Source: Trichodelitschia bisporula
Taxonomy: Eukaryota
DNA length: 20,000 bases
Direction of reading: 5' to 3'
NCBI GenBank assembly: GCA_010356995.1
Contig: ML996692.1
Span: forward strand, 238,362-258,361
Shown here: positions 2,777 to 20,000 of the stretch, in pieces
Position numbering within the stretch: position 1 is the first letter of the stretch
Layout: each line of letters begins with the position of its first letter
The notes under the pieces: model-generated
Databases searched by the model: none
The model's input: the letters and a program-made list of their open reading frames with translations, nothing else
What the model was told of the DNA's origin: nothing
Made by a program: the position numbers and the translations under genes

Positions 2777-4761
2777 CTACCCATAAACCGAAAACCCAGG
2801 CACAGCCCCCACCAGCCTCTCCCCATTACTCGGCCTGAACTTCTTCTCCTTATACCACTCCTGCGCCGTCTTGCTCAACTCCTCCACCTCGCCGAACTCG
2901 AACTTCTTCTCGGGGAGCAGGTCGTACACGCCGCGGCTGTACTCTGGCGCAATATTAAATATCTGCGCCAGGTACTTCTTCTGCGGGGGGGGGGGGTTAG
3001 CGCACGGTCAGAGAAGAGACTTCACGCTGTGAGACTTGCCTGGATCTGCGGGTACTTGACCAGTTTGAGAAGGCGCGCGGTGTTAATGCACGTGTTGTCG
3101 CGCTGTTGTTGGGACATGACTTTCGACCAGAGCGCAGTGGCCTGCGCATAATCGCTCTTCTTCCCCTCGTGCCAGTAGTGGCTCTTACGGGACACGATAT
3201 TATCCCCCACTGCGTACGGCGCCTCCGCCGTATCCGGCCTGAACTTATGCGCGAAAGAATTCGGCGCGTACTGTTTATTCCCCGCATGGTTCGCATCGGT
3301 CCTCAACGGGCCGTCGAAGTTAAGCGAACTGAAGGAATTTGCCATGAACGGGCAGTTGACAGGCACCTGGTGGAGATTGACGCCGATGCGGTGGTACTGC
3401 GCGTCCCTATAGAAGAACATGCGGAACTGGAGCAGCGGATCGGGGGAATCTTCGACGCCGGGCACCATGCTCCCGGGCGAGAAGGCCGCTTGCTCGACGT
3501 CGCGGTGGAAGTTCTCCGGGTTCTTATTCAGGACCAGACGGCCGAATTCATGCATCGGGAACTGCTCCCTCGGCCACACCTTCGTGACATCAAACGGATC
3601 GAAGCCTAGCTTCTCCGGGTCCGCGTCTTCGGGATTCATGACCTGGACCTTGGCCGTCCATTCGGGTGTCTCGCCCTTCTCAAGCGTCTCCCAGAGGTCG
3701 CGTTTTGAGTAGTCTGGGTCCTCGCCGCACATCATCAGGGCTTCTTTGTCGGTGAATTGTTTCTGCCCGTGCTTGGCGATGAAGTGGTACTTGATGTACA
3801 CGAACTTGCCCTCGGCGTTGACCCACTTGAAGGTATGGCAGCCGTACCCGTGGTTGAACCGCCACCCGACGGGCGTGCCGTGGTCGGAGAAGAACATCAA
3901 GCCCGCGTGATTCCCCTCGGGCGTATTGGCGAGTAAATCAAACAGCGCATCCGTATCCAGCAAAAAGTTTGCCGGATTGCGGCTCTGGCTGCGAATAACA
4001 TCAGGTCCCTGAATCGGGTCGCGGCAGAAAAACACGGGAAAGTTGAGCCCCACGATGTCGTAATTCCCCTCGCGCGTGTAGAACTTGATCGCGAAGCCGC
4101 GCGGGTTGCGCGCTTCGTCGGGGAATTCGCGGCCTAGGGTTACGGTGCTGAAGCGCACGAAGACGGGGGTTTTTTCGCCGACGCGGCTGAGGAAGTTGGC
4201 TTTTGTGAGGGGAGTGACGTCCTGCGTGCACTCGAAGTAGCCGAAGGCGCCGCTGCCGCAGGGGTGGACCATTCCTGTTGTCGAGTTAGTTAGGGGGCAT
4301 TTGGGGAGGTGGGGACACGAACGCTCTAAAGGCTTTGAGCGGTTGAAGTGCTGCTGCTTCTGGAAGAGGAAGGTGTCGCTGGCGACCGGGATGCCGCCGA
4401 CGGTCTTGCTGTGGGCACTGCTCGGAGTCAGCTTGAGATTCCTAACTAGACCGATGCGGGAGGCTTACGGGTCGGGAAACGGGATGCCCTCATTGTTCGT
4501 AAAGTACGGCCCGTCATCCACGCGCTTCCCGCCAGTCACAGTGCCGGATACCTTGCCGATGATATCGGCCGGGCCCTCATTCGCACTATTCATGTGGCTG
4601 GCGCGGGTACCGCGGTGCTCCCCCATGAGCGCACCCTGGATGCCCGTAGCGATCGCCTCAAGCGGGTGCTTGTTCAGATCCATCTGGTTGCTGTTGGAAG
4701 ACGACATGGCTCCGAGACGCGATTTGATATCCTCTGTGATTTTGGCGCCAGGAATCTCCAT
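2777..4761 (-). CDS. Monofunctional heme catalase (small-subunit type), 4 exons: 4761-4469, 4417-4323, 4274-3040, 2980-2777; 608 aa
   Basis: Splicing gives a continuous frame: ...NNEGIPFPDP/AHSKTVGGIPVASDTFLFQKQQHFNRSKPLER/MVHPCGSGAFG...RFSTV...RNPRGFAIKFYTREGNYDIVGLNFPVFFCRD...VEQAAFSP...DPLLQFRMFFYRDAQYHRIG...YPQIQ/KKYLAQIFNIAPEY...VPGFSVYG*. Distal His, Asn and the proximal RxxxY are present. Alternative start at 4707 (gccATG). Confidence 0.93.
2981..3039 (-). other. Catalase intron 3, non-canonical GC-AG (59 bp)
   Basis: Minus strand: CAG|GCAAGT...GCTAAC-polyC-GCAG|AAG. Removal restores the frame into 67 further catalase-like codons; unspliced, the frame stops after 5 codons. Confidence 0.85.
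4275..4322 (-). other. Catalase intron 2 (48 bp, GT-AG)
   Basis: Minus strand GTTCGT...CTAACTAAC...ACAG; joining gives ER-MVH, matching the catalase ERVVH motif. Confidence 0.9.
4418..4468 (-). other. Catalase intron 1 (51 bp, GT-AG)
   Basis: Minus strand GTAAGC...GCTGAC...GCAG; frame-preserving join CC|T (Pro). Confidence 0.88.
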
Positions 4762-5030
4762 TGACGGGGGAAATGGGAAAGGAGAGGTGGTGCAAGGAAG
4801 GGTTTTAAGCTTGCTTGCCAGTGGGGGAATTGCTGGCGGTTTGCCTTCTTGCTTTCGCTGGAGCGGGGTCGCGCTTCCTGGACCCGTCGCCCCTTCCTCC
4901 CCATCGCTGCCGTTGCATCATCGTGACGAGTACAGCTGCTCGCCTAGACCTCGACTCAGGCAACGACCTTGTTTCCGCTCGGCCTCCATTATGGAAGCAG
5001 CGCATTGCACGGGGAATAGAGTCTGTATCG

Positions 5031-5049
5031 TGACGTCGACCTGACGTCA
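5031..5049. promoter_or_regulatory. Tandem CRE/ATF (bZIP) sites upstream of the catalase
   Basis: TGACGTCG at 5031-5038 and the perfect palindrome TGACGTCA at 5042-5049, about 280 bp upstream of the catalase ATG. Confidence 0.55.
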
Positions 5050-6313
5050 ATAACTCAAGCTCGGCGCGGCGCGGTGGGGAGCTTTAAGCTTTGCCCCACC
5101 GCGGGACGGCCTGCTTGATTCTTTAGCCGCGACGGGACGGCATATGTTGGCGTAATGGGCGATGCTTGATTGGACCATGGTATGCGGCTTCCAGCATCGA
5201 GCCCGAGCGGGTGGGTGGAAGTGCGGCAGCCATCCCGCTTGCTGGGGGGAGGTGGGGCGTGAGGCTCGGCGGCGTGGGCCGAGGAGTCTTATTTCGGCAA
5301 GGTAGGCGGCGATCGACGATGGTTGGGCATGGTGGGGCAAGGATCGTGGTTCATTTGGGGATTTTTGAGACGGCGATTGGATGGAGGAAGAGCTGCAGAT
5401 CGGCAGGGCGGCTCGGTTTCATGTGAGCTGCGTGGGCTGGAGAACAGGAAAGTCTTCAGGATGGGATTTCCTGGCTTGAGATGGGAAAGTTGGTGGGCCT
5501 GCGAGGGCCCCTTAGGTGCTAAAGTTGTCGTGGATGTCTTCGTGATGGGATTCCTGGCGAGATACGAGCATGACGAAAGGAGGAAGTGATCGGCTAGTGC
5601 GCTAGAGCTACCCGGATCTGGAAGTGCAGTTGACCGTGTTGGGAAATCTGAAGTCTACCGTACTAGGCGACGTAAGTTGCTTAGCGATATCGCCGCAATG
5701 GATGAGGTTTAGCATATCCGGTATTGCCTTCACCGACAACTATCAGGACTCGTACCATGATGTCAAGTACCGTGACAGCGCACCTTTGGGTAGCGCCATG
5801 ACTCTTTCACATACAGTAGCTCCGATGCCCCTTCTACAGAACCAAAGCCATACTCAAGCGTACGGGATGTGTGGCGTCTTTTTTTTCCCTCGCCCTTGGA
5901 GTATGATGCGTAAGATTATGATGCTGGCTGATGGGGTGAATAATGTGGATGTTGGTGTGTGAGGCTGGTGAAGCCACATGCGGGCGGGCTACCAGTACCT
6001 CAAAAAGTCATGGCCGCCCCGTCAGGGTACTTTTGCGGACGTGCCAGCCACAAACTTTTCACATGGCCTCGGAGGCTGTCGCTATCCATCGGAGAAAGGT
6101 TCTCCGACGGACCGTAGGAAAAAGTTGAGCTCCAGACTTCCGCGATCTTTTGTCCCCGACTTCATGCAAACCGTTTTACGTGTTGTTGCACCCTTTTCAT
6201 CTCACAACATCCGAGCACTGCAAGGACGGTCTGATCACCTGTTGCTGCTCACTTGCTCTCCACCATCACTCAGCTTCGGCCGCACTCCGCGCGAACTCTT
6301 CTCTCCGAACCCG

Positions 6314-6332: not shown

Positions 6333-6450
6333 GAAGCCAGCAAATTCTCCTCCCCAAACCAGCTAACTCCCCTCACTGAACGAACAAGCCGCTCCTGAAT
6401 CAACAAATCTTTCCCGAACCAACGCGTTCTCCCCCGCAAACCCCACCACC

Positions 6451-7722
6451 ATGGACGCCCGCGCCCACCTCACCCGCCATGGCTGGCGCGGCGACGGCCA
6501 CTCCCTCGACCCTTCAAACAGAGGCCTCAAGAAACCCCTCCTCATCACGCACAAAACCGACCAGAAGGGGCTGGGGACTAAAAAGGCGGCCGAGAATCTG
6601 AGCGACCAGTGGTGGCTCCGCGCCTTCGATGATGCGCTGCAGCAGGTTGGCGCCGAGGATAGGAAGGTTACGGCATTGGATGGGGTTAGGGAACATGGGG
6701 CCAAGGTTGGGGGGTTGTATGGGTTTTTTGTGCGCGGCGGGGTGCTGGGGGGGACTATTGGGGAGGATGATGAGGTTAGGCCTGGGGATAAGGATGGCCG
6801 GGGGGAAGGGGAGAAGCGGTCCGATAATGCCGATGCCGACGCTCCTGCGGCTGTTGATGTCCTTGCAAAGAAAATCTTGAAGCGCAAGCGCCGTGAGGCT
6901 GCCATCGCTGATGACGCGAGCAGCAAAAGGGCCGCCCGCTTGACGCTCGAGCAGTGGGTGGAGATCGGAGTCGCGTGCCAGCCGGAGTTGGACAAGATTG
7001 ACGAGAGGATTAGGAGGAAGGTGCTGAACGAGCGAAGCGCGCCGGAGTTGGGGATTACGGTCGACCGGGCTAGGGACAAGCTCGAGAGGCTGGTGAAGCT
7101 ACGAGACAGGGTGAGGAGGAGGGCGGACAAGGAGAAACACAGAGCGATGAAGGAGGAACGTAGGGCGGATAGGGAGGAAGCTAGGGCGGATAGGGAGGAA
7201 GCGAGGGCGATGAGAGCAGCGGAGGAGGGGAATGAGGGTAAGACGGTTGAGGAGAGGAGAAAGGAGGAGGGAAAGAGGCGAAGGAGGGCAGAGAGGGCGG
7301 AGAGGAGGGAGGAGAGGGCGGCGGAGAGGGAGGCGAGGGAGGAACGGAGGGCGATGAAGGACGAACGTGTTGCGGCGAAGGCGGAACGTATTGCCGCGAA
7401 GGTGGAACGGGGGGAGGAGAGAGCTGAGGCGAATTCGAGACGTTGGGAGGAGAGGTTGCTGGCGAAGGAGGAACGCGAGGCGAGGGCGGCGCAGGAGCCG
7501 AAGAAGAAAAAGAAGAAGGGAGTTGAGGCTGGTTCTGCTGATGCGGATGACGACGCGGCAGCGTCACCTGGGTTTGAACCGATGCTGCCAGCTATTGGCG
7601 GCACGATCAACTCGGCGGAGGAGGAGGAGGCGGAATTTACGCGGAAGGGGGAGAAGGATGCGAGGAAGAAGGGGGAGAAGAAGAAGAAGAAGTCGAAGAA
7701 GGGTCGTAATGGAGAGGTTTAG
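6451..7722 (+). CDS. TMA23: Tma23-like nucleolar/ribosome-biogenesis protein with G-patch-like N-terminus and long E/R/K-rich tail (423 aa, intronless)
   Basis: N-terminus MDARAHLTRHGWRG...GLKKPLLITHKTDQKGLG...DQWWLRAFDDAL parallels yeast Tma23 as I recall it (MD..YL...GW...GLKRPILVKHKRDKKGLG...WWERLFDGHL). Good start context (accaccATGG); poly-Lys tracts near the C-terminus. Confidence 0.8.
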   Translation: MDARAHLTRHGWRGDGHSLDPSNRGLKKPLLITHKTDQKGLGTKKAAENLSDQWWLRAFDDALQQVGAEDRKVTALDGVREHGAKVGGLYGFFVRGGVLGGTIGEDDEVRPGDKDGRGEGEKRSDNADADAPAAVDVLAKKILKRKRREAAIADDASSKRAARLTLEQWVEIGVACQPELDKIDERIRRKVLNERSAPELGITVDRARDKLERLVKLRDRVRRRADKEKHRAMKEERRADREEARADREEARAMRAAEEGNEGKTVEERRKEEGKRRRRAERAERREERAAEREAREERRAMKDERVAAKAERIAAKVERGEERAEANSRRWEERLLAKEEREARAAQEPKKKKKKGVEAGSADADDDAAASPGFEPMLPAIGGTINSAEEEEAEFTRKGEKDARKKGEKKKKKSKKGRNGEV

Positions 7723-8093
7723 GGCAGGATTGGGGAGGTGGTATCGCGTTTCTCTTGTAGGCTCCTTCGGCGCTGCTGCGTGTAGCTAATTGTGGTGGTA
7801 CGAATGGACGGGCTTGAGTATGCGATTGCGGTATCTGGCGATGTGCTTTCTTCATTTTTGGATGCTTCTTGCGAATTGGATGGCTGAGATGGCAAGCGGA
7901 TTGTGAGTTGAAGCTCCTTGCCCTTCTCAATGGCGGCTGACGAAGGCCCATTCCCCAGACAGACCACCTCACCTGCCAGCCACAGCACGACAGCTTCCCA
8001 GCCCCTTTCAACTCTCCTACCCATATCCACCGGGTGTTCATCCCCTCCTCCCCTCCCCGGCCGGACATACCCACGTCCCCATCCCCAGCCTGA

Positions 8094-8107
8094 GGGTTAT
8101 ATAACCC
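8094..8107 (+). promoter_or_regulatory. Candidate TATA box within a perfect 14-bp palindrome
   Basis: GGGTTATATAACCC is self-complementary and contains TATATAA (8098-8104). It is followed by ~220 bp of C/T-rich leader-like sequence and then the repeat array. Confidence 0.45.
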
Positions 8108-8344
8108 CCCCTCCCTCCCACCCATCAACTCATCATCATCAGTCAACACAATCCACTCCGACGTCCACTCCTCTCCACTCACCTCGACTCCACTTTGTGT
8201 TTCGCTCATCTTCACTTTACTTACGCACACTTTCATTCGAATTTGCTTTCCGCTCATCTCACACCACTTCCCCTTCCACTCCTCTTCCCATCATTCCCCA
8301 TCATTCATTCTGTTCGCACTACGCATATCCTCGTACTGTGCGCA

Positions 8345-8615
8345 CCGTTCCCGGCCTGCCTTCAGACCACGAGATGCCCAGTCGGGCCTCATTCTTGCCC
8401 GTTACATTTCCGGTCCGCCCCCCCCCTGGCCTATATCCAGACCAGGCGATGCCCGGTCGGGCCTCTTTTCTACCTCTCTCATTTCCGGCCCGCCCCGCCC
8501 CTCGACCTGCCTTCACGGCGTGCGATGCCCGGTCGGGCATCCATCCTTCGCCTCCCATCTTCGGCCCGGCCTGCCCCTCGGCATCCGTCCCCTCTCCCCT
8601 ATGTCCGGTTCCAGC
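8345..8615 (+). repeat. Tandem repeat, 75-76 bp period, about 3.5 copies
   Basis: GATGCCCRGTCGGGC at 8373, 8448 and 8524, with a degenerate tATGTCCGGT at 8600; each full copy is followed by CATYTYCGGYCCG. Confidence 0.85.
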
Positions 8616-11600
8616 CTCCGTCCCCGGCGTGCACGGCATCGATCCCATTCTCGGTCCCGCCGCTGTTTCGGCGCCAACATTCCCCCGCCCCGGCGACTTC
8701 CCAGCCAGCCTCGAGGCAGCCAGGGCGTCTTTGAATGGTTAGGATCTTTTGCCGCGCCGCCGGTCTCCCCCGATCGTCCCTCAACGAGCATTTCTACGTT
8801 TCCATTCACGCTCCGGCCCGTCCTCGCCATCCCACAGCAGCTTGGGATGTCCGGTCCGGATAGCCCACGCTCGTAATGATTCCCTCGCCCCGGCAGCGTC
8901 ACAGCCCGCCCAGGGCTAGCCAGGATCCTCATCCACAAAAGGCATCTTTTGCTGCGGTGACGGTCAGGTGACAATCTCCCCCACTTAATTCCGCTGCCGC
9001 GCGGGCGGTTCCTCGGCATTTGGTGAGGCAGGGCTAATCTCTGGTCTGGGGCTCGACTCTGGACTGCTATTTCCCCGGCGAGCCGGCGGGGGCGGCTCAT
9101 CGTAGGCCAGTCAGGGGTCCAAAACCGTCCGCATAATCTTTTGCTGCGGCGGCGGTCGGGCCATCCTTACCACCATTCAATTCCGCTGCCGCGGCGGCGC
9201 TTCCCACCGCGCGTTGCTCGGCATTCCGTCAGGCAGCGCTCTCTGTGGTCTGGGGCCCGACCTTCAACTGCTATTCCCCCGCCCCGGCCGCGGTCCCGGC
9301 TCATCTCGGGCCAATCAGGCCCCCCATACACATACAGTATCTTTTGTCGCGGTTCGCGGTTCCCAGCCCGCCACTTAGCATCGATAAGATAATGAAGCAC
9401 ACCATGTGCGGTGCGGCGTCCGTCCCTCCGTATTTTGCCGATAGTTTGGATTCCCGGCCCGGCCGGCAACGCCGGCATACTATTCCTCCGCCACGCCCGC
9501 GGCTCTAGGTTATCTCGGACCAGTCAGGGGCGGAACCCACCCCTGAAATCTTTTGCCGCGGCGGCGGTCTCCACCAGTCGTCCCTCGGCATTTTGCCGAG
9601 ACTTTAGATACCCGGCCTGGCGGGCGACTCAAGCATACTATTCCTCCACCGCGCCCGCGGCTCTAGGTCATCGCGAGCTAGTCAGGCGCGCAACCCATCA
9701 TTCACATTTTTTGTCGCGGGAGTCGGTTCCCAGTCCGCCCCTTTACATCGACAAGATTATGAAGCATACATGCCCCGGTCCGACCGCCGTCACCGGCACA
9801 CAGCGCGTGCATTCTCTTCTCGGTGACGCTGCCTTCGCGCTCATTCCCCTGCCGCCGCGCCGGTGGTCCCAGCCCACCTACGGCTCGGCCTGGCGTCACT
9901 TCGACCGCCTCGATTCCGCTGCCACGGGACGGTTCCTACCGACCGTTCCTCGGGCCGCTTCATGAGCGTTGCATTCTCCGTCCTGCCCGTCCTCGGCATC
10001 CCACAGCAGCGTTGGATGCCCAGTCCGGCCTGCCTCCCAAGCACCCCGGCGGCCCAGGCTCCTCAGCCGGTCGGGCGTCCATTCCATCAGCATCATTCCG
10101 CCGCCGCGGCGGCCGTTTCAGTCCGTCTCGGGTTAGTCAGGGCCAGAAGCATCATCACCCATTGTCTTGCTGTGGCTGCGTTCCTAGCCGGTCTCTGGCC
10201 TATCCGGTCTCCGTCTCCCACGTCGAATTCTGCTGCCGGAGTGGCGGTTCCCACGGCCCGTTCTCGGTAAAATTCAAAACTCTGCTATGTCTGGTCGGGC
10301 AGTGTACACTTCGCCCTCATTCTCTCGCCGCGGCGGCGTTTCTGACCCGTCTCAGGGCAGTCGGGCAAGGCTCTAACAAATTCTCCTCCAGCCGCGGCGG
10401 CGTTCCAAGTCCGTCTTCGAGCTAGTTAGGGCGGGCAATCACTAATCCAGAGTAATTCGCCGGCGGCGGCGGCGGCTTCCACGCCGACCTCGGTATCACC
10501 GACACGACATCGGCATACCCTGTCCGGCCCTCTTCGCCTGAACGTGATTCTCCGGCCCCGGCGGGGCTTGCAGCCCGTTTCTGGACCTGTTTAGTTTTTT
10601 TCAACTTTCACTCCATTCCGCCGCCGCCGCCGCGTTCTGGCCCGTCTTTAGGCTAGTCGGCGGCAATCCAATTGTCCACAATTCTGCTGCCGCAGCGGGG
10701 GTCCCCACCGCCTGTCCGTCGGCGGCCCGTTGAACATTGGCACGCCCGGTCCGGTGCTCCACCTTCTACCGCCATGTCCGGTCCGGCCTAGAAGCGGTTA
10801 TAGGTATTCTCCTATCTCGTAGGCGCTTCTAGCCCGTTCCCCGGCTAGTTACGCTCCGATACGCCATCCCCCATTTTCCTGCCGCGCCGGCGGTCCCGAC
10901 CCGTCTCAGGCCAGCCAGGCGTTGCTACCTGCAGCCAAATTCCGCTGCTGCGAGGTAGTTTCCACCGGCCATCCCTCGGCGCCCCATCCGACCTCACCAT
11001 GCTTGGTTCGGCACCCTATCTCCACCCATAATGTCTGGCCTGGGTCCTGTGCCGGCAGCTCAATCGCCTTGCTGCAGCAGAGTTGTCATTCCCCTCGGCC
11101 AGGTCAGGGGCGTTTGACCAAAGAAGTTGTCTTTGGCAATGAGGGCTCCCACTACGCACCCCTCGGAGCTCTATGCTCCAGATCCATGGCCGTCCGGCAC
11201 TCTACAAACCTGCTTCATGACCGGTCCGGCGCCCCGCCTTTTCTTGCTACGTCTGGTTCGGCCTTGGACGGGTTGAAAACACTCTCCTACCGCTACGGCG
11301 TTCCCACCCCATTCGTAGGCCAGTCAGGGACTATATCCGAGTCTGAACATTCTCCGTAGGCGGCGGCGCTCCCACTGCTGATCCCTTGGTACCCCGTACA
11401 ACATCGGCATGCCCGGTCCGGCGTGTTCTTACGAGCTATCAGGCCCCGTTCGGCCTTCCAACCTATTGCCAGTATTCTCCTGCCTCGGCAGAGTCCCCAT
11501 CCTCCCCACGCCCAGTCAGGATCGTCGAAGTCATCAAACATTCTCTGCCGGCGGTCGCGTTTCCTACCGCCCGTTCTCGGCATATGCTACAGCCATGCCC

Positions 11601-13276
11601 TGTCTGGTCCGGGTCCCTCGGTAGGAGCGCCATTTCCCTGCCGAGGTGGCGTTTGCCAAGCTCCTCGCAACCCGGTCAGGTAACCGCACACACCGTTGTG
11701 TTCTCTCCCGGCGGTCGCTTTTCCCACTGCCTAATTCCTCGGCATATGACACGAAATCTTCATCTCCGGTCCGGGGCATGCCGCTTCCGACCCATTTCCC
11801 TGCCGCGGCGATGCTCCCATACGCATCTTCGGGCCGGTCGGGCCCGTAATCATCTGGAAACATTCGCCGCCGGCAGTAGCGCTTCCTACCACCCGTCCCT
11901 CGGCACCTTTCACCACGTCCCCATGCCTGGTCCAGGTTCTCAAATAGCAGCTCAATTGTCCTGCTGCGGCGGCGTTTCCCCCCATCTCGGGCATGTTCGG
12001 CGTGACTCGCCTCCCCCGTATTCCGCTGCCGCGGCGCCGTTGCTACCATTCAGGTGCCCGGTTTTGGGCCAGTCCGGAGTTACTTTTATAAACATCCTTC
12101 TCCTAGCGGCAGCGATCCCACCCGTATTCGGCCCGGTCAGGCGTCTGACTGATACACGGCATTCCGCTGCTGCGGTGGTAGTCCTAGCTCGGCCGCCACC
12201 CGGTCAGGAGAAAGAGGAAGAGCCGGAATTTGGCCGCTGGCGGTAGCGCTCCAAGCCCCTCATCGGGCCAGTCCGGCCGGAAATCATGCGCAAGCTTTCT
12301 TCTGCCGTGACGGCGTCCTCACCCTCCTCAAGGCAGTTTTGCCATGCCCCTCTGTCTGGTCCGGGTACGGATCTGAATTATACATTCCTTTGCCGCGGCG
12401 GGGTTCCTACCCTCTCCGCGCCTAATTCAGGGGTGGTACTCTGAAGGATTTCGGCGGTCCGGTAGCGCTCCCTCACCGCCTATTTTCTGGTGGCGGCGGC
12501 GTGCCCTACTCCCTCGGCCCGGTCAGGGGCTTGCACACGCTGTTCTATTCTCCTGCTGTGGCGAGGTTCCCACGCGTCCTCCGCCAAGTCAGGGACGCTG
12601 GCCTCCCGATCAGTTTCGCTGCCGTGGCGGCGCTCCCAGCCCGCCTCAGCGGCAGTCAGGGCCGGCACGCACGCAACGTCAATGATTCGCCGCCGCCGTC
12701 GGCGTTCCCACGCGTATCCTCGGTGCCTTGGTCCGGTGAGCATCCAAACCGCAACCCATACTCGCCGGCGTGGGCGGCGATTCCCACACTCCCTGCGGCC
12801 GATTTCGGGACCAATTCATGACGACACATTCTCCGCTGGGAGCGGCGCTCCCAGCCCCTCAACTGCCTGATCGGGAGCCCCAACCGGACTCAAAATCCGG
12901 CCACCGGCAGCGGTCTTCCCACTTTCTTCGGCCCGGCTAGGCGGGCCATTCGTGAGGCGTTTTAGGCCGCTGTGAGCGGTGTCCCCACGCACGTCTCCGC
13001 CCCGGCCAGGAAAATCTTTTCCATCTACTATTCTCTGCCGCCGGCGCCCTTTCTTACTCGGTTCTTAGCCGACCAGCAACCAAACCCATGTATTCACCGT
13101 CGGGAGCAGCGGTTCCCAGGCCCGTCCGCGGTCCGGTCAGGAACGGAATCTGTGTGCTTGATTCTCCGCCGGCGGTGGCGTCCCCCACCGTCCATCCTCG
13201 CACCAGTCAGGCTCACCACCTACGAAAGAGAACTGAACGGCGTTCCCACTCTCGCGCGCCCCGGTTCCGGGCATAA

Positions 13277-13415
13277 ATCATTGCCTCCGAACGAGATGAT
13301 TGAAATGATGGCTACAAAGCTTCCACTTCTTGAGGTGCTCTCCATCGGTGGATACAGGCTCACAGATAAAGCGTTGAAGTCCTATCCGTAAAGTCAAGTA
13401 TTTAAGAAGTATTCC
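13277..13415 (+). pseudogene. Fragment of a leucine-rich-repeat (F-box/RNI-like) gene embedded in the array
   Basis: AT-richer non-repeat island translating EMIEMMATKLPLLEVLSIGGYRLTDKALKS and, after a frameshift, PIRKVKYLRSI. Fits the LxxLxxLxLxGxxLTDxxL pattern. Confidence 0.6.
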
Positions 13416-14076
13416 CTGTCACTCACGGTCCTTTTTCCCTTTCGACGGATTCCCCTGCTGCGCCTGTGTCCCCCGGCGCCCGTTTTCGGCCCGGTCAGGA
13501 GAAGTCCAGCCAAGCATATTCGTCGCCGCGAGCGGCGTTTTCCAGTTCGGCTTCGGGCCCGTCCTACACCCTTCACGAATCCTACATTCTCCCCCCGCGG
13601 CCGCATTCCTACCCTCCCCGCGCCCGGTTTTGGGCGTAGCAACCAGAGCGATCATTTGCTGCCGACAGCGGCGTCCGGTACCGCCTGTCCTGGTGTTGGT
13701 CAATGCGTGCGAGAGCGACTGCAATTCTTCCCCAGCAGCGGCGGTTTCCACTTCCCCGCGCCCGGATCTGGGCGGACGAACAACAACTGGCATTTGCGGC
13801 GGTCCGGCCCGAGCGCCTTCCGGACGATTCCTTGGTGGCGGTACCGTCGGCATGCCGCGACGGCTTTTAGGAGAAGGCCTATCTACGATTATTCGTCGGT
13901 CCCGGGCCGGTTCAGTATACTCCATGCCCTGGTCACGACGGCGCTCCCAACTTGTCCTCGGGTCGGTTAAGGTCCACAAACCACAATCCAAATTTGCCGC
14001 CGGCAGTGGCGTTCTCATCTCACATACGTCCGATTTCGGGATTGGAAGACCCGGCCAGATTCGGCGGTCCGGCTGG

Positions 14077-14192
14077 ATGCCTTGTCGAAGCATTCGAGAC
14101 TTTTGCGCATCGAGGGAATCAACTTTCGCAACTGCGAGAGCTGCGACTAGATGTGATAACACAGTTTTCTGACGAGCACATGGAAAGGCTGG
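14077..14192 (+). pseudogene. Second LRR-like gene fragment embedded in the array
   Basis: Non-repeat island translating LVEAFETFAHRGNQLSQLRELRLDVITQFSDEHMERLA (LxxLxxLxL....FSDxxMxxLA). GGCTGG occurs at both junctions (14071-14076, 14187-14192). Confidence 0.55.
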
Positions 14193-14963
14193 CACTGGTG
14201 GTGGCGGCGTTCCCAGCTCGTCCTCGTCCCGGTTATGGTCCCGAACCGCGGCCCGAATTCGCCGCCGGCAGCGGCGCGCTCACTTCACCAGCGCCCGGTT
14301 CCGGGCCGACGTGAGCCTCCAGGCATTTCGGCGGTTCGGCGCCAACGTGTGGTAGAGTTATTCTCTGTTAGCGACGCCATCAGCACGCCGCGACGGCTTT
14401 CGGGAGATCCCCAGTCGTGGATTATTCGTCGGTCTGGGGCAGTACCCAAGTCTATCATCTCTGCCGTCCCTGGTTGTGGCGCCGTGCCCATGCCGCGCAC
14501 CGGCTTTCGGGGATGCATCTACGACGGTCTATTTCGTCGGTTCGGGGCCCTATTCGCGGCCAGCCATGTCCTGGTGGTGCCGGCGCCCCCGGCATACCGA
14601 CGGCTTTCTGGCCTTCTTCGCCACCCTCATATTCCTTGGCCGGGTCCACCGTCCAGCAGGATTATTTTCCGGCGTCGGTGCTGTTCCTATTTCGCGTGCC
14701 GACCGTCCCACGCCGCGCCAGCAGCGCGCTCATCGGCCTGGTCCGGACCCTCCTCAGCCATTTCTCGGTGTCGGTGGTGTTCCTATCCCACCGGCCGGCG
14801 TACTGCCATCGTCCAACTGACTCGGAAATCTTGAAATGCTAATATTTCACGCCTTGCGTGATGCAGCCGATCATACGCCGTCGGCGCGCTCAGTAACCGA
14901 GAACACGCTGAGGAGTTCCCGACCCCTTCAATCTCCGACGACTGTTATCAACTTTCAACCGAG

Positions 14964-15040
14964 ATGCCGTCCGATCTTCGCCTAACGGTGTTCCGGGGTC
15001 ACCCCGGTGAGGATGTCATACAATGGACCACACGCTGTCA
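14964..15040 (+). mobile_element. Possible 5' fragment of a retrotransposon gag-like ORF
   Basis: MPSDLRLTVFRGHPGEDVIQWTTRC resembles the FxGxxxEDVxxW motif at the start of Ty3/gypsy-type capsid proteins; the similarity ends abruptly. Confidence 0.4.
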
Positions 15041-15124
15041 TTCTCTTGTTTTGCCCCTGCACCCTGCACTTACTTCCCAACAACGCCCATTTCCCATCTT
15101 CGGATCAGCGGACCTGCGGGGAAG

Positions 15125-15131
15125 AAAAAAA
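15125..15131 (-). terminator. Pol III oligo-T terminator of tRNA-Asp
   Basis: A7 on the + strand equals T7 on the minus strand, 2 nt downstream of the tRNA discriminator base. Confidence 0.8.
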
Positions 15132-15133
15132 GT

Positions 15134-15205
15134 CTCTCCCGCCGGGAATCGAACCCGGGCCGTCCGCGTGACAAGCGGAAATCATGACCACTAGACTACG
15201 GAAGA
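15134..15205 (-). tRNA. tRNA-Asp (GTC), intronless, 72 nt
   Basis: Minus strand TCTTCCGTAGTCTAGTGGTCATGATTTCCGCTTGTCACGCGGACGGCCCGGGTTCGATTCCCGGCGGGAGAG: acceptor TCTTCCG/CGGGAGA, anticodon arm TCCGC-TTGTCAC-GCGGA, T arm CCGGG-TTCGATT-CCCGG, discriminator G. Confidence 0.97.
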
Positions 15206-15355
15206 TGGGCGAGCTGTGCTCGTCGTAGTGTGGTGACGGGTTGCTCCGGAAGGCTGCTTATATATCAACGATGACGGGACGTATTGCCGGATGCATCGAC
15301 AGCTCACCTTGGATGATCCTAATGGCTCCTCCGCGCACCCCTCACATTTCAGTCA

Positions 15356-15556
15356 CTATTTTCATCTGACGAGCTCGCAATACATTGTGGGCTGTTCACG
15401 GCTACGTCTTCGATATCCGGAAGCACGCGGAATATCATTCGACCTGGTGGTGCCATGGAAGGCTCACCAACCACGCCAAATATCCGGCCGCCCCATTTCA
15501 TGTGCGGCACCACCTTCGGTCCTGGAATATGCGCCAAAATTGTGGCCGAGACGACG
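15356..15556 (+). pseudogene. Degenerate cytochrome b5-like heme-binding domain fragment
   Basis: Across frameshifts: LFSSDELAIH / WAVHGYVFDIRKHAEYH / PGGA ... NCGRD, matching the order of cyt b5 motifs FTxxEVxxH, WxxIHGxVYDxTxFxxxHPGG and AGxD. Confidence 0.55.
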
Positions 15557-15628
15557 AGCCAACCGACGAATTGGGTTGGGTCAGCACCTTCGGGTAACGA
15601 CGTGAGGAGGCGGGGTGCTCCTGTACGG

Positions 15629-15676
15629 GTAAGGCCACTTATATCTCACTCCCTCAAGCCTAACCCGCGTGTCCAG
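15629..15676 (+). other. Orphan intron-like sequence (48 bp)
   Basis: GTAAGG donor, CCTAAC branch site and CAG acceptor, with the same size and spacing as the catalase introns, but no intact flanking ORF. Confidence 0.5.
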
Positions 15677-15914
15677 AAATTGATATCAAGGCTTGCCGGC
15701 CTCTGAAATCATCTGACTTTAATCCTCCTCATGGATTTCTTCCCCGTTGTCCTTCGGGGCGCATCGAATCGCTGATAACGTCTCTCGGGAACTACGGTTC
15801 AGAAAGGCGCACGTCGTTCTCTTCAGAATATTATCGTGAGAAACGCCGTCGACGTATCTCAGCGCCTCTGACTTCGCAAGTTTGGGTCGGAATGTGATGG
15901 AGATATAATCTTTT

Positions 15915-16079
15915 GAGCTCTGGCATCGCAGGATGGGACACCCCGTCATCGAGGTCGTGAAGAAGCTACCGAACGCAGCACATGGCGTTGGCGTTATCCT
16001 TGAGGACGAAGACCAAGCTGAGACGGCTACCGGCAAGTGTGAGACGTGTGTCCTCACGAAAATGACCAGACAGGTCTCC
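15915..16079 (+). mobile_element. Ty1/copia retrotransposon fragment: GAG-pre-integrase HHCC zinc-binding region
   Basis: Translates ELWHRRMGHPVIEVVKKLPNAAHGVGVILEDEDQAETATGKCETCVLTKMTRQVS (LWHxRxGH...CxxC..K). No integrase core, RT or LTR adjoins it. Missed by the ORF track. Confidence 0.85.
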
Positions 16080-16825
16080 TGGGTTCAAATGGATCGCGGC
16101 ACATAATCCGGGCAGCGGGACGAGAGCTTTCATTTGGCTGCCTGGGCGCCCCTTTTGCCACCAAGGCGGTCACCTGGCGCCGCTGTCATCTTGAGATGAT
16201 CTCAGACCTATCGATGCTACCCGTAGTTTCCCAGATAGGCCAACTTCCCCTTTTTTGGGCCGCCGAAGCTTCCATGTCATGTTCCGCTCGAAGGTTGGCG
16301 TCGCACACCTAGTCCGGATCCCCATCAGCGCGACGTATGTGCCCGTCCCGGAGTCAACACTTTGCCTAGCCGCCACGTCGGGTATAACGTACAACCCAAC
16401 TGCGGCGGTCGAGGGCCCCGAGAGGCCGATTATTCGGCCCTGCGCGGGTGACGCCCGGCTCGCCCCAGCCCATCCCCATTCGGCGGACCGTGGTGCATCT
16501 GGAGCGCATCACGCCCAGCATCTTGTTCCTGAATGCTCAGACCAGTCGGATCGAATACCGAACCGGGCCCTCGGATTTGAAAGAAATGGCACTATTTTTT
16601 GGCTGGAAACTCAGGGCGACAATGGCTTGCTCTCGGGGGGCATCGCACGGCTAGCCCGGCGCACGGAGATTTTCAGGCATGTGCCTGCGCGGGCGTCCCA
16701 GACTCGATGATTTGCCCGGCCTCTACGTCCGGTAGGATGTCCAACATGACTGCTGCTCGCGGCAACCCAACGAATCCGAATATGAAGCTGCGCGGGCGGT
16801 GGCCGGCACCACCACCTTCCGTTCC

Positions 16826-17385
16826 ATTCGGGTGCCAGGCACCACAAAGTTCCCCATGATTCGGGCTGCCGGTGCAGCAACCGAACCGATCATTACTGCG
16901 AGAATCGTCCTCCCAAACTCACGCCCCCAATTGCATCTTACGACCTCGCTCCTCTTTTTCGCAAACGCAGTGCCAACCGTCCACCTGCTGGATTATGTCA
17001 CAGGCAACGTCCGCTCCCTCGTCAACGCCATCGAGGCGCTTGGTTGGATGTAACTTCAACTTCTGCATGACGGATATGGGCAACCGGATCTGGACGCCTA
17101 GCTTTCTCGTTAGCTCCGGTTTAAGACCCGCGTGGTCGCCGTCCGCACCACTTTTAGGGAAACGATAGGCCAGGACTTCCTACAGGCCATTCGGTACCAC
17201 AACCCCTCCTTCTACTCGGCGGCCGGCGCAAAAACCGAGCCCACGATTCGGGTGCCCGGCGAAGAAGCCGAGGCCTACATTCGGATGCCGGGCATAGCAC
17301 CTTACCGCGTCATTCGGGTTCCCGGCCAAGCAACCCAGCCAATCATTTCGTCGGCCGTGGGACGTCCGGACCCTATCACACCGGA
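16826..17385 (+). repeat. 33-bp / 11-aa tandem repeat in two blocks (16826-16900 and 17213-17385), probably a decayed coding repeat
   Basis: Unit starts at 16826, 16859, 16892 and 17213, 17246, 17279, 17312, 17345 (exact 33-bp steps): IRVPGTTKFPM, IRAAGAATEPI, YSAAGAKTEPT, IRVPGEEAEAY, IRMPGIAPYRV, IRVPGQATQPI, ISSAVGRPDPI. Confidence 0.8.
16970..17047 (+). pseudogene. HIS7: 5' fragment (~26 codons) of imidazole glycerol phosphate synthase hisHF
   Basis: (V)PTVHLLDYVTGNVRSLVNAIEALGW matches the fungal His7 N-terminus (MPTVHLLDYVAGNIRSLVNAIE..G). The start is GTG instead of ATG, ~65 bp of 5'UTR-like pyrimidine-rich sequence precedes it, and TAA at 17051-17053 truncates it. Confidence 0.85.
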
Positions 17386-17698
17386 ACCGTCGCCGCTATA
17401 TCTCGGCTGCCAAAGCCAACAACGCATGTCGCCCGCTGTGCTTACGGAAAGGGACGCCATGGCCGGTTCCGCGGCGGGGTGATTGGTGAAGCGGTGGTGG
17501 AACTGAGTTGTGTGTGCTCCGTCGCTGTTCTCTCGTTGCTGTTTTTATGTTCCCGTCGCTGATCCTGCCCGCGTATGTGGAGGGGTGGGGGAGAGTAGTG
17601 CAGTGGGAGACACAGATGGGTTATGGCTCCGGGGATAGGAGGGAGACAATGAAGCGTGATCGTCCAGCCGTGTAGACCTGAGGCTTACTGTCACTTCG

Positions 17699-17982
17699 TG
17701 TTAAAAGGTGATGCGTGATCAATGGAAATATCACTCCATCACAAGTTGGACCGAAGGTCTGTCCATGAACGAGTTGCTTGATTGACTAGCAGTGGGAAGT
17801 GAGCTGACTATATACCTCGCCAGGAGACGACCCCTGTCTCCACTCCAGCCACCCCAGGTTGCCGCCACAAATTCAACACGCCCTAGCAGCGATGACCCTC
17901 TGGATGTTGAAAGGGTGATGCGTGATCAACAGAAACGTCACTGCATCACAAGTTGGACCGAAGGTCTGTCCATGAACAAGTT
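17699..17982. repeat. Direct repeat pair, ~77 bp (17699-17775 and 17905-17982), each with an internal inverted repeat
   Basis: GGTGATGCGTGATCAA..GAAA..TCACT.CATCACAAGTTGGACCGAAGGTCTGTCCATGAAC.AGTT occurs twice, offset 207 bp. Confidence 0.9.
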
Positions 17983-18054
17983 ACTCTTTTTGTCAAAGAG
18001 GTGGGGACCCGAGTGTACTTATACTCGAGCCCTGTGGCTGAAACTGGGTAAGGC

Positions 18055-18705
18055 TGAACACAGCCACCGCATTCCAACAACCTTCTCTTGCTCCAGGCGC
18101 ACCTCAGGAGTTGGACTATGATCTGAGGCAGGACTGATACTTGCTGGCCTCAGGGCCGAGAATGGCACGTATGGTAAGACGACATGTGGCCGCATTTAGC
18201 TGAATCAGGCTTACCGCCTTCGGCAGAAAATGAAGATTAATATGGAGACTGCGCTACAGTGACAATTCCCGACCTTGTGAGGCTTATGTACATTATGGCA
18301 CTGAGCAAAACGCGGTGCGGCGGTGTGTGAGCTAGGTATCAATATGCTATTTCCGCGGCTAGGTTGACTGGTATGTTTTCTCCTTTTATTACATGAAATC
18401 ACGTGCGGAAGCTGAATGCTCTCCCCTAATTCAAGTCATTGTCCTGCCTCGTCGGAGCTTCGCAAAAGCAGATCAGCTGATTATGTCGTCATAGGCTTAT
18501 TTGTAGGGCGTTCCAAGGCGTGTTCAGACTACGGCGGGCGGCGGGGGGAAGGTAAGACAAGTTGAAGCCGTGGCAGAGGTGGCGCTGGTGGGATTGGTGG
18601 CGCCGGTGGAGGTGGCGCTGAAGAATCGGGCTCTCTTTGTGGGGTCTCAGATGACGGAAACAGGATTATCCAGCTCGCACCATTGAACACAGCCACCGCA
18701 TTCCA
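18055..18705. repeat. Dispersed exact 22-bp direct repeat (18055-18076 and 18684-18705)
   Basis: TGAACACAGCCACCGCATTCCA occurs twice, with partial similarity (cttctct) extending ~12 bp further. Confidence 0.85.
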
Positions 18706-20000
18706 TCACATCTTCTCTGCGCAGTGAAGGAATAGTTAATTCAAGATGTTTCCAAATCCCCACTGCATAAAAGCTATGCCAGGGGCGCACAAATCACTGG
18801 TTGCACAGCATTGGTTGTGGAATAACATTCATTGAAAGCTTGAAGAACTATGTAAGGGTTTCGCGTGTGAATGTGGAGTGTGGGGGAGCTCAGGGTGCTA
18901 GCGCACAGCCAGCGCCAAGTTCTCACCCCTGCAAATCCAGCCGGGCTGAAATTGCAGGGATCGAGCTTACCGAGTCATGTGACCAGCACAGGGCATGTGG
19001 CGATTTGACATGGGAGAGATGGTATCCTCTCATGACAAGCTACTACATCACTGATATGGCGATATTTTATGCGCCGCTGTTATTATTTGTGATTGGAGAG
19101 TTCGATTTCAAAGCCGTCATGTTGAATATATAATTCATTGCCACTTTTGCTCTCAAAAAGGTACAAAAAGACAATGGCCGCAATGGAGGTGGTTGGGGAA
19201 GAGGTTAAGAGACACTTCAGCAAATAAATTCCATACACAGCACTCAACCAGACAAATACCCTAAGTCAATCTTATCCCTCTGAATGGCGACGACACCCGG
19301 ATTGCGATACTCGAGTGGAAGCCAGAGACTTTATTCCGCGCCTATGGTTTCCATTCCCTGAATTCTGAAACGTGGAGGATCCGGTGCGGAACCTGGCGAC
19401 TGCTTGCCGTCCGGCAAGAACGTCGCCCGAACTATGCCGGGCTGCAGATACTAGATGAGTGATTGGACGACTGGACGTTGACCTATGCCTCAAAATCTCA
19501 CCCAGTCGCTATGGAAAATTCCTACTGGTTTCTACGACCCGGAGTTTATTGTCACTCCGCTGCACTTCACTCAAAAGAAGCAAAATATTCAGTTGCGCCT
19601 GGCTTGGCGTTTTGTATCCCGGTCCCGGCTAAGTTAAATAAAGCCTCATTGCTAGGCCCACTCCCCACTTTCCATCTAATTTTCAGCTTTATCACGGAAA
19701 AATAGTTCAGTTTTTCAAGCAGCGCTAAGATGCCCGATATTCCAGAGAATATGAACATGAAATTGGAGCGCCTTCTTACTACCAGATGGGGCCAAGAAGC
19801 CTTCATTGTATGCATGAAGTTTAAGTCGAAGATAAAATCCTGGATCTGATTCAGATTTAGGAGGTATGCGCACAGTCGATGAAAATTGGGCTGACTCGTT
19901 GATCTTGACTGCCGATATAGGAAGTAGGTGGGCCTACCTGATATGGACGAGATGCGATGATTGCTGACCGTAGGCTGTTTGCTGGTGTAGGATGTGAGTG

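Follow-up and report, generated by a model that had tools for sequence, protein, structure and literature searches.

Along a stretch of Trichodelitschia bisporula DNA (assembly GCA_010356995.1, contig ML996692.1, positions 238,362 to 258,361 of the forward strand; 20,000 nt, hereafter the window), a short sequence core recurs some 50 times in a tract that holds no intact protein gene, and the question that this locus raises is what such a tract is and why it has been kept. The interval from 8.1 to 15.2 kb is very probably one RNA polymerase II unit, consisting of a TATA box, a C/T-rich leader, a start at ~8129 and an unspliced non-coding RNA of at least 7.0 kb, the body of which is a single-copy, old, degenerate repeat array. 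As to its retention, the best explanation, which we advance tentatively, is that the array is kept as a repeat-built long non-coding RNA (lncRNA) that presents short motifs to a sequence-specific factor. The region from 14.85 to 17.75 kb is separate from the array: what was described as one locus is in fact two.

Promoter and transcript

Four public sequencing runs contain the whole window as contigs: X1 and X2 come from one sample and one study, and the DNA runs X3 and X4, possibly the source of the assembly, from another sample and study. Four joints that skip introns (three in a catalase gene and one at 15627>15676) are present in X1 and X2, whereas X3 and X4 have none; thus, X1 and X2 are RNA. 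The contigs are without information on strand, 3′ end or local depth.

The array is preceded by a core promoter on the + strand (8095–8106), recognized in the sequence as the palindrome GGTTATATAACC with an embedded TATATAA (8098–8104) and located upstream of the RNA contig starts, and by a C/T-rich leader (8106–8340, + strand), the composition of which is 74% pyrimidine and 7% G; both features had been noted in the first-pass annotation of this DNA, and both are borne out. The first ATG downstream of the promoter is at 8374. The transcript is covered in X1 by a single contig of 7032 nt (8129–15160; depth 53.3) and in X2 by a single contig of 7024 nt (8137–15160; depth 20.3), each with 0 mismatches and no joint. 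The contigs start 25–33 nt past the end of the TATA box, and from there they extend for 7 kb across the array, which upholds the earlier proposal of a transcribed locus. The depth of the bin 8005–8671 (43.4 in X1 and 16.3 in X2) equals the contig depth multiplied by the covered share of the bin; therefore, there is no RNA cover over 8005–8128 (124 nt), which rules out both read-through from the gene upstream and carried-over DNA as the source of the array transcript. Thus, we infer a transcript start near 8129, and the geometry of the promoter suggests that the transcript is on the + strand. Both contigs end at 15160 because a multi-copy tRNA-Asp gene breaks every assembly graph at this point, including those of the DNA runs. 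RNA depth over the array is ~15% of that of the neighboring genes (53.3 vs. 270–330 in X1, and 20.3 vs. 82–136 in X2; three genes). As a discrete transcript of >200 nt with no coding capacity, the array RNA qualifies as an lncRNA.

Repeat array

The body of the transcript is a degenerate head-to-tail array on the + strand (~8341–14850), ~6.5 kb long and composed of ~50 decayed repeats, as delimited by core and unit profiles, TRF, a repeat finder and pattern counts; TRF and the repeat finder both report a degenerate direct repeat. A profile built from 12 core copies gave 58 rows at E < 10, comprising 54 on the + strand within 8343–14791, one on the minus strand and three outside; with 54 of the 58 core matches on the + strand, the tract is a tandem repeat array of minisatellite-like type. 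After iteration of the core profile, all 33 matches at E < 0.05 are on the + strand, and the 47-nt core consensus is ATTCCCCTGCCGCGGCGGCGTTCCCAGCCCGTCTCGGGCCAGTCAGG. The base unit is ~66 nt, with cores spaced by 64–71 nt or multiples thereof, and a higher-order unit of ~160 nt (158–163 nt), made of two related sub-units, is defined by four clean units at 11.35–12.02 kb; a 138-column profile of this higher-order unit has 34 matches between 8569 and 14791, all on the + strand. Lag peaks of the array fall at ~66, 75, 160, and 367 nt. The pattern ATTCYNNNGCNGNGGCNGCG (≤3 mismatches) is matched 59 times (47 on the + strand inside the array) vs. 7.1 ± 2.6 times in shuffles, and the pattern SRGTCMGG 31 times (26 on the + strand inside the array) vs. 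9.1 ± 2.8; both counts are above those of every one of 200 shuffles. The core/linker array of same-strand tandem units described in the first-pass annotation therefore stands, but it stops near 14.85 kb and not at 17.5 kb.

The array begins with 75-nt units (8338–8563) and ends with variant units from ~13.8 to 14.8 kb, recognizable cores being sparser after 13.2 kb. Similarity between copies is 60–80%, and it reaches only ~80% in the youngest duplicates. DNA depth over the array (407 in one run and 173–209 in the other) equals that of the flanks (390–430 in the first), and DNA contigs of 7079, 3514, and 5204 nt span the array with no mismatch; thus, the array occurs in single copy and its assembly is correct. 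Indices of repeat-induced point mutation are normal, and CpG observed/expected is 1.07, so there is no CpG loss.

Three local features of the array were also observed. An AT-richer module (…CATCGATAAGATAATGAAGCA…) occurs at 9339–9424 and 9706–9791, in two neighboring 367-nt super-units; its two copies are 74% alike, and no other part of the array contains it. The 158–163-nt higher-order unit (11345–12020 and 9421–9719) is near the nucleosome repeat length of fungi. Over 13341–14007, RNA run X2 alone has extra depth (48.5 vs. 20.3 for the array contig), therefore a short part of that bin must be matched at ≥90% by another transcript; this other transcript could be the donor of a non-repeat insert at 13.25–13.45 kb.

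Coding capacity

From ~7801 to the end of the window, the spread in GC content between codon positions is ≤0.17 in every 300-nt segment; in the three flanking genes it is 0.2–0.5 in most such segments. The earlier statement that the region has no intact protein gene is thereby borne out, the codon-position signal being flat over 12 kb rather than 9. Open reading frames (ORFs) within the array have flat GC1/2/3 values of 0.55–0.74. Its + strand contains 109 stops vs. 109.7 ± 9.8 expected from first-order Markov simulations, and its longest ORF is 299 aa vs. a simulated mean of 303. Because stop count and longest ORF are both at chance level, the many + strand ORFs of the array simply reflect the pyrimidine richness of that strand (58.8%).

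The first-pass annotation had suggested a giant repeat-protein gene, now decayed, that later turned into a hotspot for insertions. Such a gene, of LRR or proline-rich type, might account for the gene-like promoter and leader, for the 123-codon ORF opened by the ATG at 8374, for the initial units of 75 nt, a multiple of three, and for the verified foreign pieces and tRNA gene at the distal end. However, no trace of such a gene was found. Codon-position signal is gone, neither stops nor ORF lengths depart from chance, and the spacings of 64–71 and 158–163 nt are out of frame; in the longest frame of the array (299 codons, 11347–12246), consecutive core copies are read in different phases, all three being used. 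No meaningful match was obtained in a Pfam scan of 26 array ORFs, and no LRR match at E ≤ 1. The sole match in a word-based search of 5.8 billion proteins is the window's own 220-aa model, and a HMMER search against 1.84 billion representative proteins gave no credible homologue of the array. The two matches that the latter returned (E 2.3e-5 and 5.2e-4), to a bacterial repeat adhesin-like protein and an animal Ig-repeat protein, were judged spurious and repeat-inflated. We therefore regard an origin from a giant repeat-protein gene as quite improbable. A 220-aa protein model from the array is already present in a protein collection; if the motifs are not under selection, the array should not be annotated as genes.

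Conservation of motifs and RNA structure

Conservation within the repeat unit is concentrated in short blocks. In the 138-column unit, the blocks ATT, G..G, CCA, CTCGGCA, AT..C.GGTC.GG, and GTCAGG are kept in 85–100% of copies, and the stretches between them in 25–45%. Conserved columns were defined from distal copies only and then measured in proximal copies: among the 10 proximal copies, pairwise identity is 75.8% for the columns that are ≥80% conserved in the 24 distal copies (beyond 10.2 kb) and 39.3% for the variable columns, where composition alone would give ~27%. Within a duplicated unit the genealogy is the same for every column; the contrast must therefore come from selection, from uneven mutation, or from indel turnover in the linkers only. 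Given the upward bias that profile alignment introduces, we consider the contrast suggestive of constraint on the motifs.

The blocks kept in this way are short and linear, and in part palindromic, and one short motif is present at high density along the RNA, one of the features by which repeat-rich scaffold or sponge RNAs of the PNCTR, NORAD, and hsr-omega type are recognized. The array may thus have been retained for ~50 copies of short linear motifs in a fixed order (ATTC, GCCGCGGCGGCG, TTCCCA, CTCGG, GGTCMGG), and the RNA would then offer a sequence-specific binding protein many sites at once, as a multivalent platform or sponge, in the manner of architectural or decoy repeat-rich lncRNAs. 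Such a factor might be an RNA-binding protein, or a regulator of the zinc-cluster type that recognizes the CGG-rich blocks.

Several observations count against a motif-presenting RNA. Profile alignment favors conserved columns, which biases the identity of these columns upward, and linker indels may make the contrast look larger than it is. Over 13 higher-order units no consensus RNA structure was found (-0.98 kcal/mol, three pairs); folding energies are close to those of shuffles (mean z -0.58, 28 windows); and a search of Rfam at E ≤ 10 gave no family for the array, finding only the tRNA. With no conserved fold, no excess folding energy, and no Rfam family, the RNA, if it works, works through linear motifs. 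We know of no protein that binds the array motifs. A related array was not found elsewhere in a metagenome scan with the core pattern, which yielded 103 loci, none with more than one profile match (56 and 59 matches in all for two profiles), so that these are chance matches. The irregular spacing and the strongly decayed distal third are as expected of a neutral relic.

Neutral persistence is the main rival, and it has a considerable chance of being correct, although short of an even one. By this account, transcription from a surviving promoter continues over an ancient minisatellite-like expansion or over what is left of a dead gene, and both the RNA and its motifs are inert. This would fit units that are 60–80% alike with youngest duplicates at only ~80%, the irregular spacing, the fading of matches towards 13–14.8 kb, the lack of structure, family or relatives in the searches made, and an RNA depth only ~15% of that of neighboring genes. 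However, a shared genealogy predicts equal decay, yet motif columns are at 76% and linkers at 39%, near saturation; a useless array of 6.5 kb would have had to persist unbroken, together with an intact TATA promoter, in a compact region; and no transposon lies inside the array, despite the debris just downstream.

It is also conceivable, but improbable, that the array acts as DNA. In that case, ~50 CGG/CCG-rich sites (GCCGCGGCGGCG, CCGGTCCGG) would serve a DNA-binding factor, or the array would form a chromatin boundary near the tRNA gene and the repeat-rich region, with transcription as a by-product. Conserved blocks that are short, linear, and partly palindromic would suit such a role, as would the failure to find RNA structure, the closeness of the 158–163-nt unit to fungal nucleosome spacing, and the tRNA gene and high-copy repeat downstream; the canonical promoter and discrete start instead point to RNA as the product, and we are aware of no factor.

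A retained, motif-presenting lncRNA accordingly remains our preferred explanation of the array. If its motifs are under selection, the locus offers an easily testable fungal long RNA that works by valency, with a single promoter, an array in one copy, and a short motif. Without such selection, it is a clear example of a transcribed relic that has persisted for a long time.

Comparison with known systems

PNCTR is a long human RNA that derives from a ribosomal DNA spacer and is made of short repeats. This tandem-repeat-enriched RNA is reported to recruit many copies of PTBP1 (PMC6224606). Like PNCTR, the array transcript is a long, unspliced, repeat-built non-coding RNA for which the working idea is a large number of short linear protein-binding motifs rather than a fold, and it is rich in pyrimidines (array, 59%; leader, 74%). 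Unlike PNCTR, it comes from a single-copy locus between ordinary genes, and it has units of 66–160 nt with GC-rich motifs and no known protein partner; the two RNAs show no sequence likeness. By analogy, the array RNA might be a fungal counterpart of the repeat-built architectural and sponge RNAs of animals, with ~50 GC-rich motifs that titrate or concentrate one factor, although we hold this more specific proposal to be doubtful.

Among fungi, the nearest parallel is meiRNA of fission yeast, an RNA of ~1–1.5 kb with scattered hexamer motifs. It is reported to act as a decoy for Mmi1 (PMC4077057; also the review PMC12566771). The array RNA would resemble it as a putative fungal lncRNA that binds a regulatory protein, but unlike meiRNA it is a tandem array, and there is no shared sequence.

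Transcribed minisatellite and macrosatellite arrays likewise have head-to-tail units on one strand, higher-order periodicity, and an origin by duplication. Whereas typical satellite arrays are homogenized and variable in copy number, the array in the window is old and confined to a single locus, with copies 60–80% alike, its own TATA promoter, and a discrete start. In the available portion of the 2025 review of fungal lncRNAs, repeats are mentioned only for telomeric TERRA (PMC12566771), and no similar fungal locus was found in the literature searches made. If the sponge or architectural reading is true, this kind of locus has apparently not yet been described in fungi, to judge from those searches.

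Downstream region and mobile-element tests

Beyond the array, a tRNA-Asp (GTC) gene is located on the minus strand at 15134–15205 (ARAGORN; 59.7 bits in Rfam). DNA depth in its bin is ~2644 vs. 407, and all DNA and RNA contigs break there (15160/15207); the raised depth implies several near-identical tRNA-Asp genes in the genome. A second transcript, on the + strand (15207–17757), is spliced and has no coding signal: it has no ORF of >171 aa and flat codon-position GC. Its RNA contigs cover 15207–17030 (depth 416/162) and 17011–17757, and its RNA depth (416–546 in X1 and 162–207 in X2) is eight to ten times that of the array. It contains a 48-nt intron (15629–15676, + strand) with GT..AG ends and a CTAAC branch site, the joint 15627>15676 being present in X1 and X2 and absent from X3 and X4. 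A TATATAT at 15259–15265 may, from its sequence, be the promoter of this transcript.

The second non-coding transcript runs over old debris, in which lie two verifiable foreign pieces. One is a copia-type gag-pre-integrase fragment (15909–16103, + strand; PF13976, E 3.3e-8), which is single-copy, with a DNA depth (433/189) equal to that of the flanks. No other retrotransposon domain was found beside it, and the remaining ORFs at 14.7–17.7 kb have no Pfam family above the curated cut-off; an intact copia long terminal repeat retrotransposon was therefore rejected, the 65-aa gag-pre-integrase piece being a fragment and not an element. The other is a copy of the 5′ end of HIS7 (imidazole glycerol phosphate synthase; 16970–17050, + strand), with ~27 codons followed by a stop. 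It aligns to residues 4–29 of yeast His7, weakly (E 0.074) but at the exact N-terminus. Contigs from a second, strongly expressed locus overlap 16963–17030 and differ at 16962 and 17000, with DNA depth corresponding to one more copy; thus, a donor exists in the same genome. Two small blocks of ~33-nt repeats flank the HIS7 piece on the + strand (16797–16873 and 17217–17326; repeat finder, with TRF reporting period 33 at 17223–17293).

These two pieces are what stands of six captured fragments listed in the first-pass annotation, and both are outside the array. For the other four (two LRR pieces, a gag-like piece, and a cytochrome b5 piece), nothing was found in Pfam or in PDB sequences at E ≤ 1, and the large protein search was likewise empty with the first LRR piece and with the gag-like one; the searches for longer proteins are, by the tool's own note, weak evidence.

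The leading idea of that annotation, a fragment-capturing mobile element of the Helitron or Pack-MULE type, is highly unlikely in view of these results. It would be consistent with two real, co-oriented fragments of unrelated genes downstream of the array (15.9–17.05 kb, + strand), such as the carriers of these families bear, and with a near-identical second locus for the HIS7 piece in the genome. However, no terminal inverted repeats were found around the region, the sole pair being weak (26 nt, 77% complementary) and inside the array; Pfam scans of 51 + 26 ORFs gave no transposase, Rep, or helicase domain, Helitron terminal motifs not having been scanned; the DNA is single-copy, without further copies; and four of the six fragments are unsupported, the supported ones being outside the array. 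The candidate was rejected on these grounds, and whichever explanation of the array holds, the term "fragment-capturing element" can be dropped: such debris is nothing unusual next to a tRNA gene where a repeat-rich tract begins.

That tract is a high-copy repeat that bounds the locus (17758–20000, strand unspecified), recognized by DNA depth. Summed depth of its DNA contigs is 31,000–76,000 vs. ~400, and there are many transition differences between copies. Among 32 of its ORFs scanned, 31 had no Pfam family at E ≤ 0.1, and one had a match to Lenti_VIF_2 (E 0.02) under the curated cut-off. Two direct copies of ~75 nt are present near 17700–17775 and 17897–17972.

Flanking genes

The window DNA is GC-rich (~60%), has short introns, and is evidently fungal. 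Its left 7.7 kb comprises three genes in which the codon signature is clear (GC3 0.72–0.80 and GC2 0.40–0.53). The first is an open frame of 835 codons (1–2508), named acrB in the first-pass annotation, for which a Pfam search found no family; a search of the ESM Atlas with the left-flank ORF gave no match at 0.9 or above. The second, on the minus strand, is a catalase gene (Pfam E 2.3e-145), the only name among those given earlier to the flanking genes that was confirmed. Three of its introns are skipped by the RNA contigs (2980>3040, 4273>4322, and 4417>4469), one of which (2981–3039, minus strand) has GC..AG rather than GT..AG ends. Upstream of the catalase start, RNA depth is 164–280 at 4465–5336 and drops to 9.8/2.7 at 5337–6003; this RNA may be a long 5′ leader of the catalase gene or another transcript, and an ORF at 4241–5044 had no match when tested against Pfam. 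The third gene, called TMA23 in the first-pass annotation, is a GA-rich + frame (6367–7722), assigned from codon-position GC and an RNA contig. Both strands of this gene (6363–7722) are open for 451 codons, and it is the + frame that fits the codon-position GC and the RNA contig.

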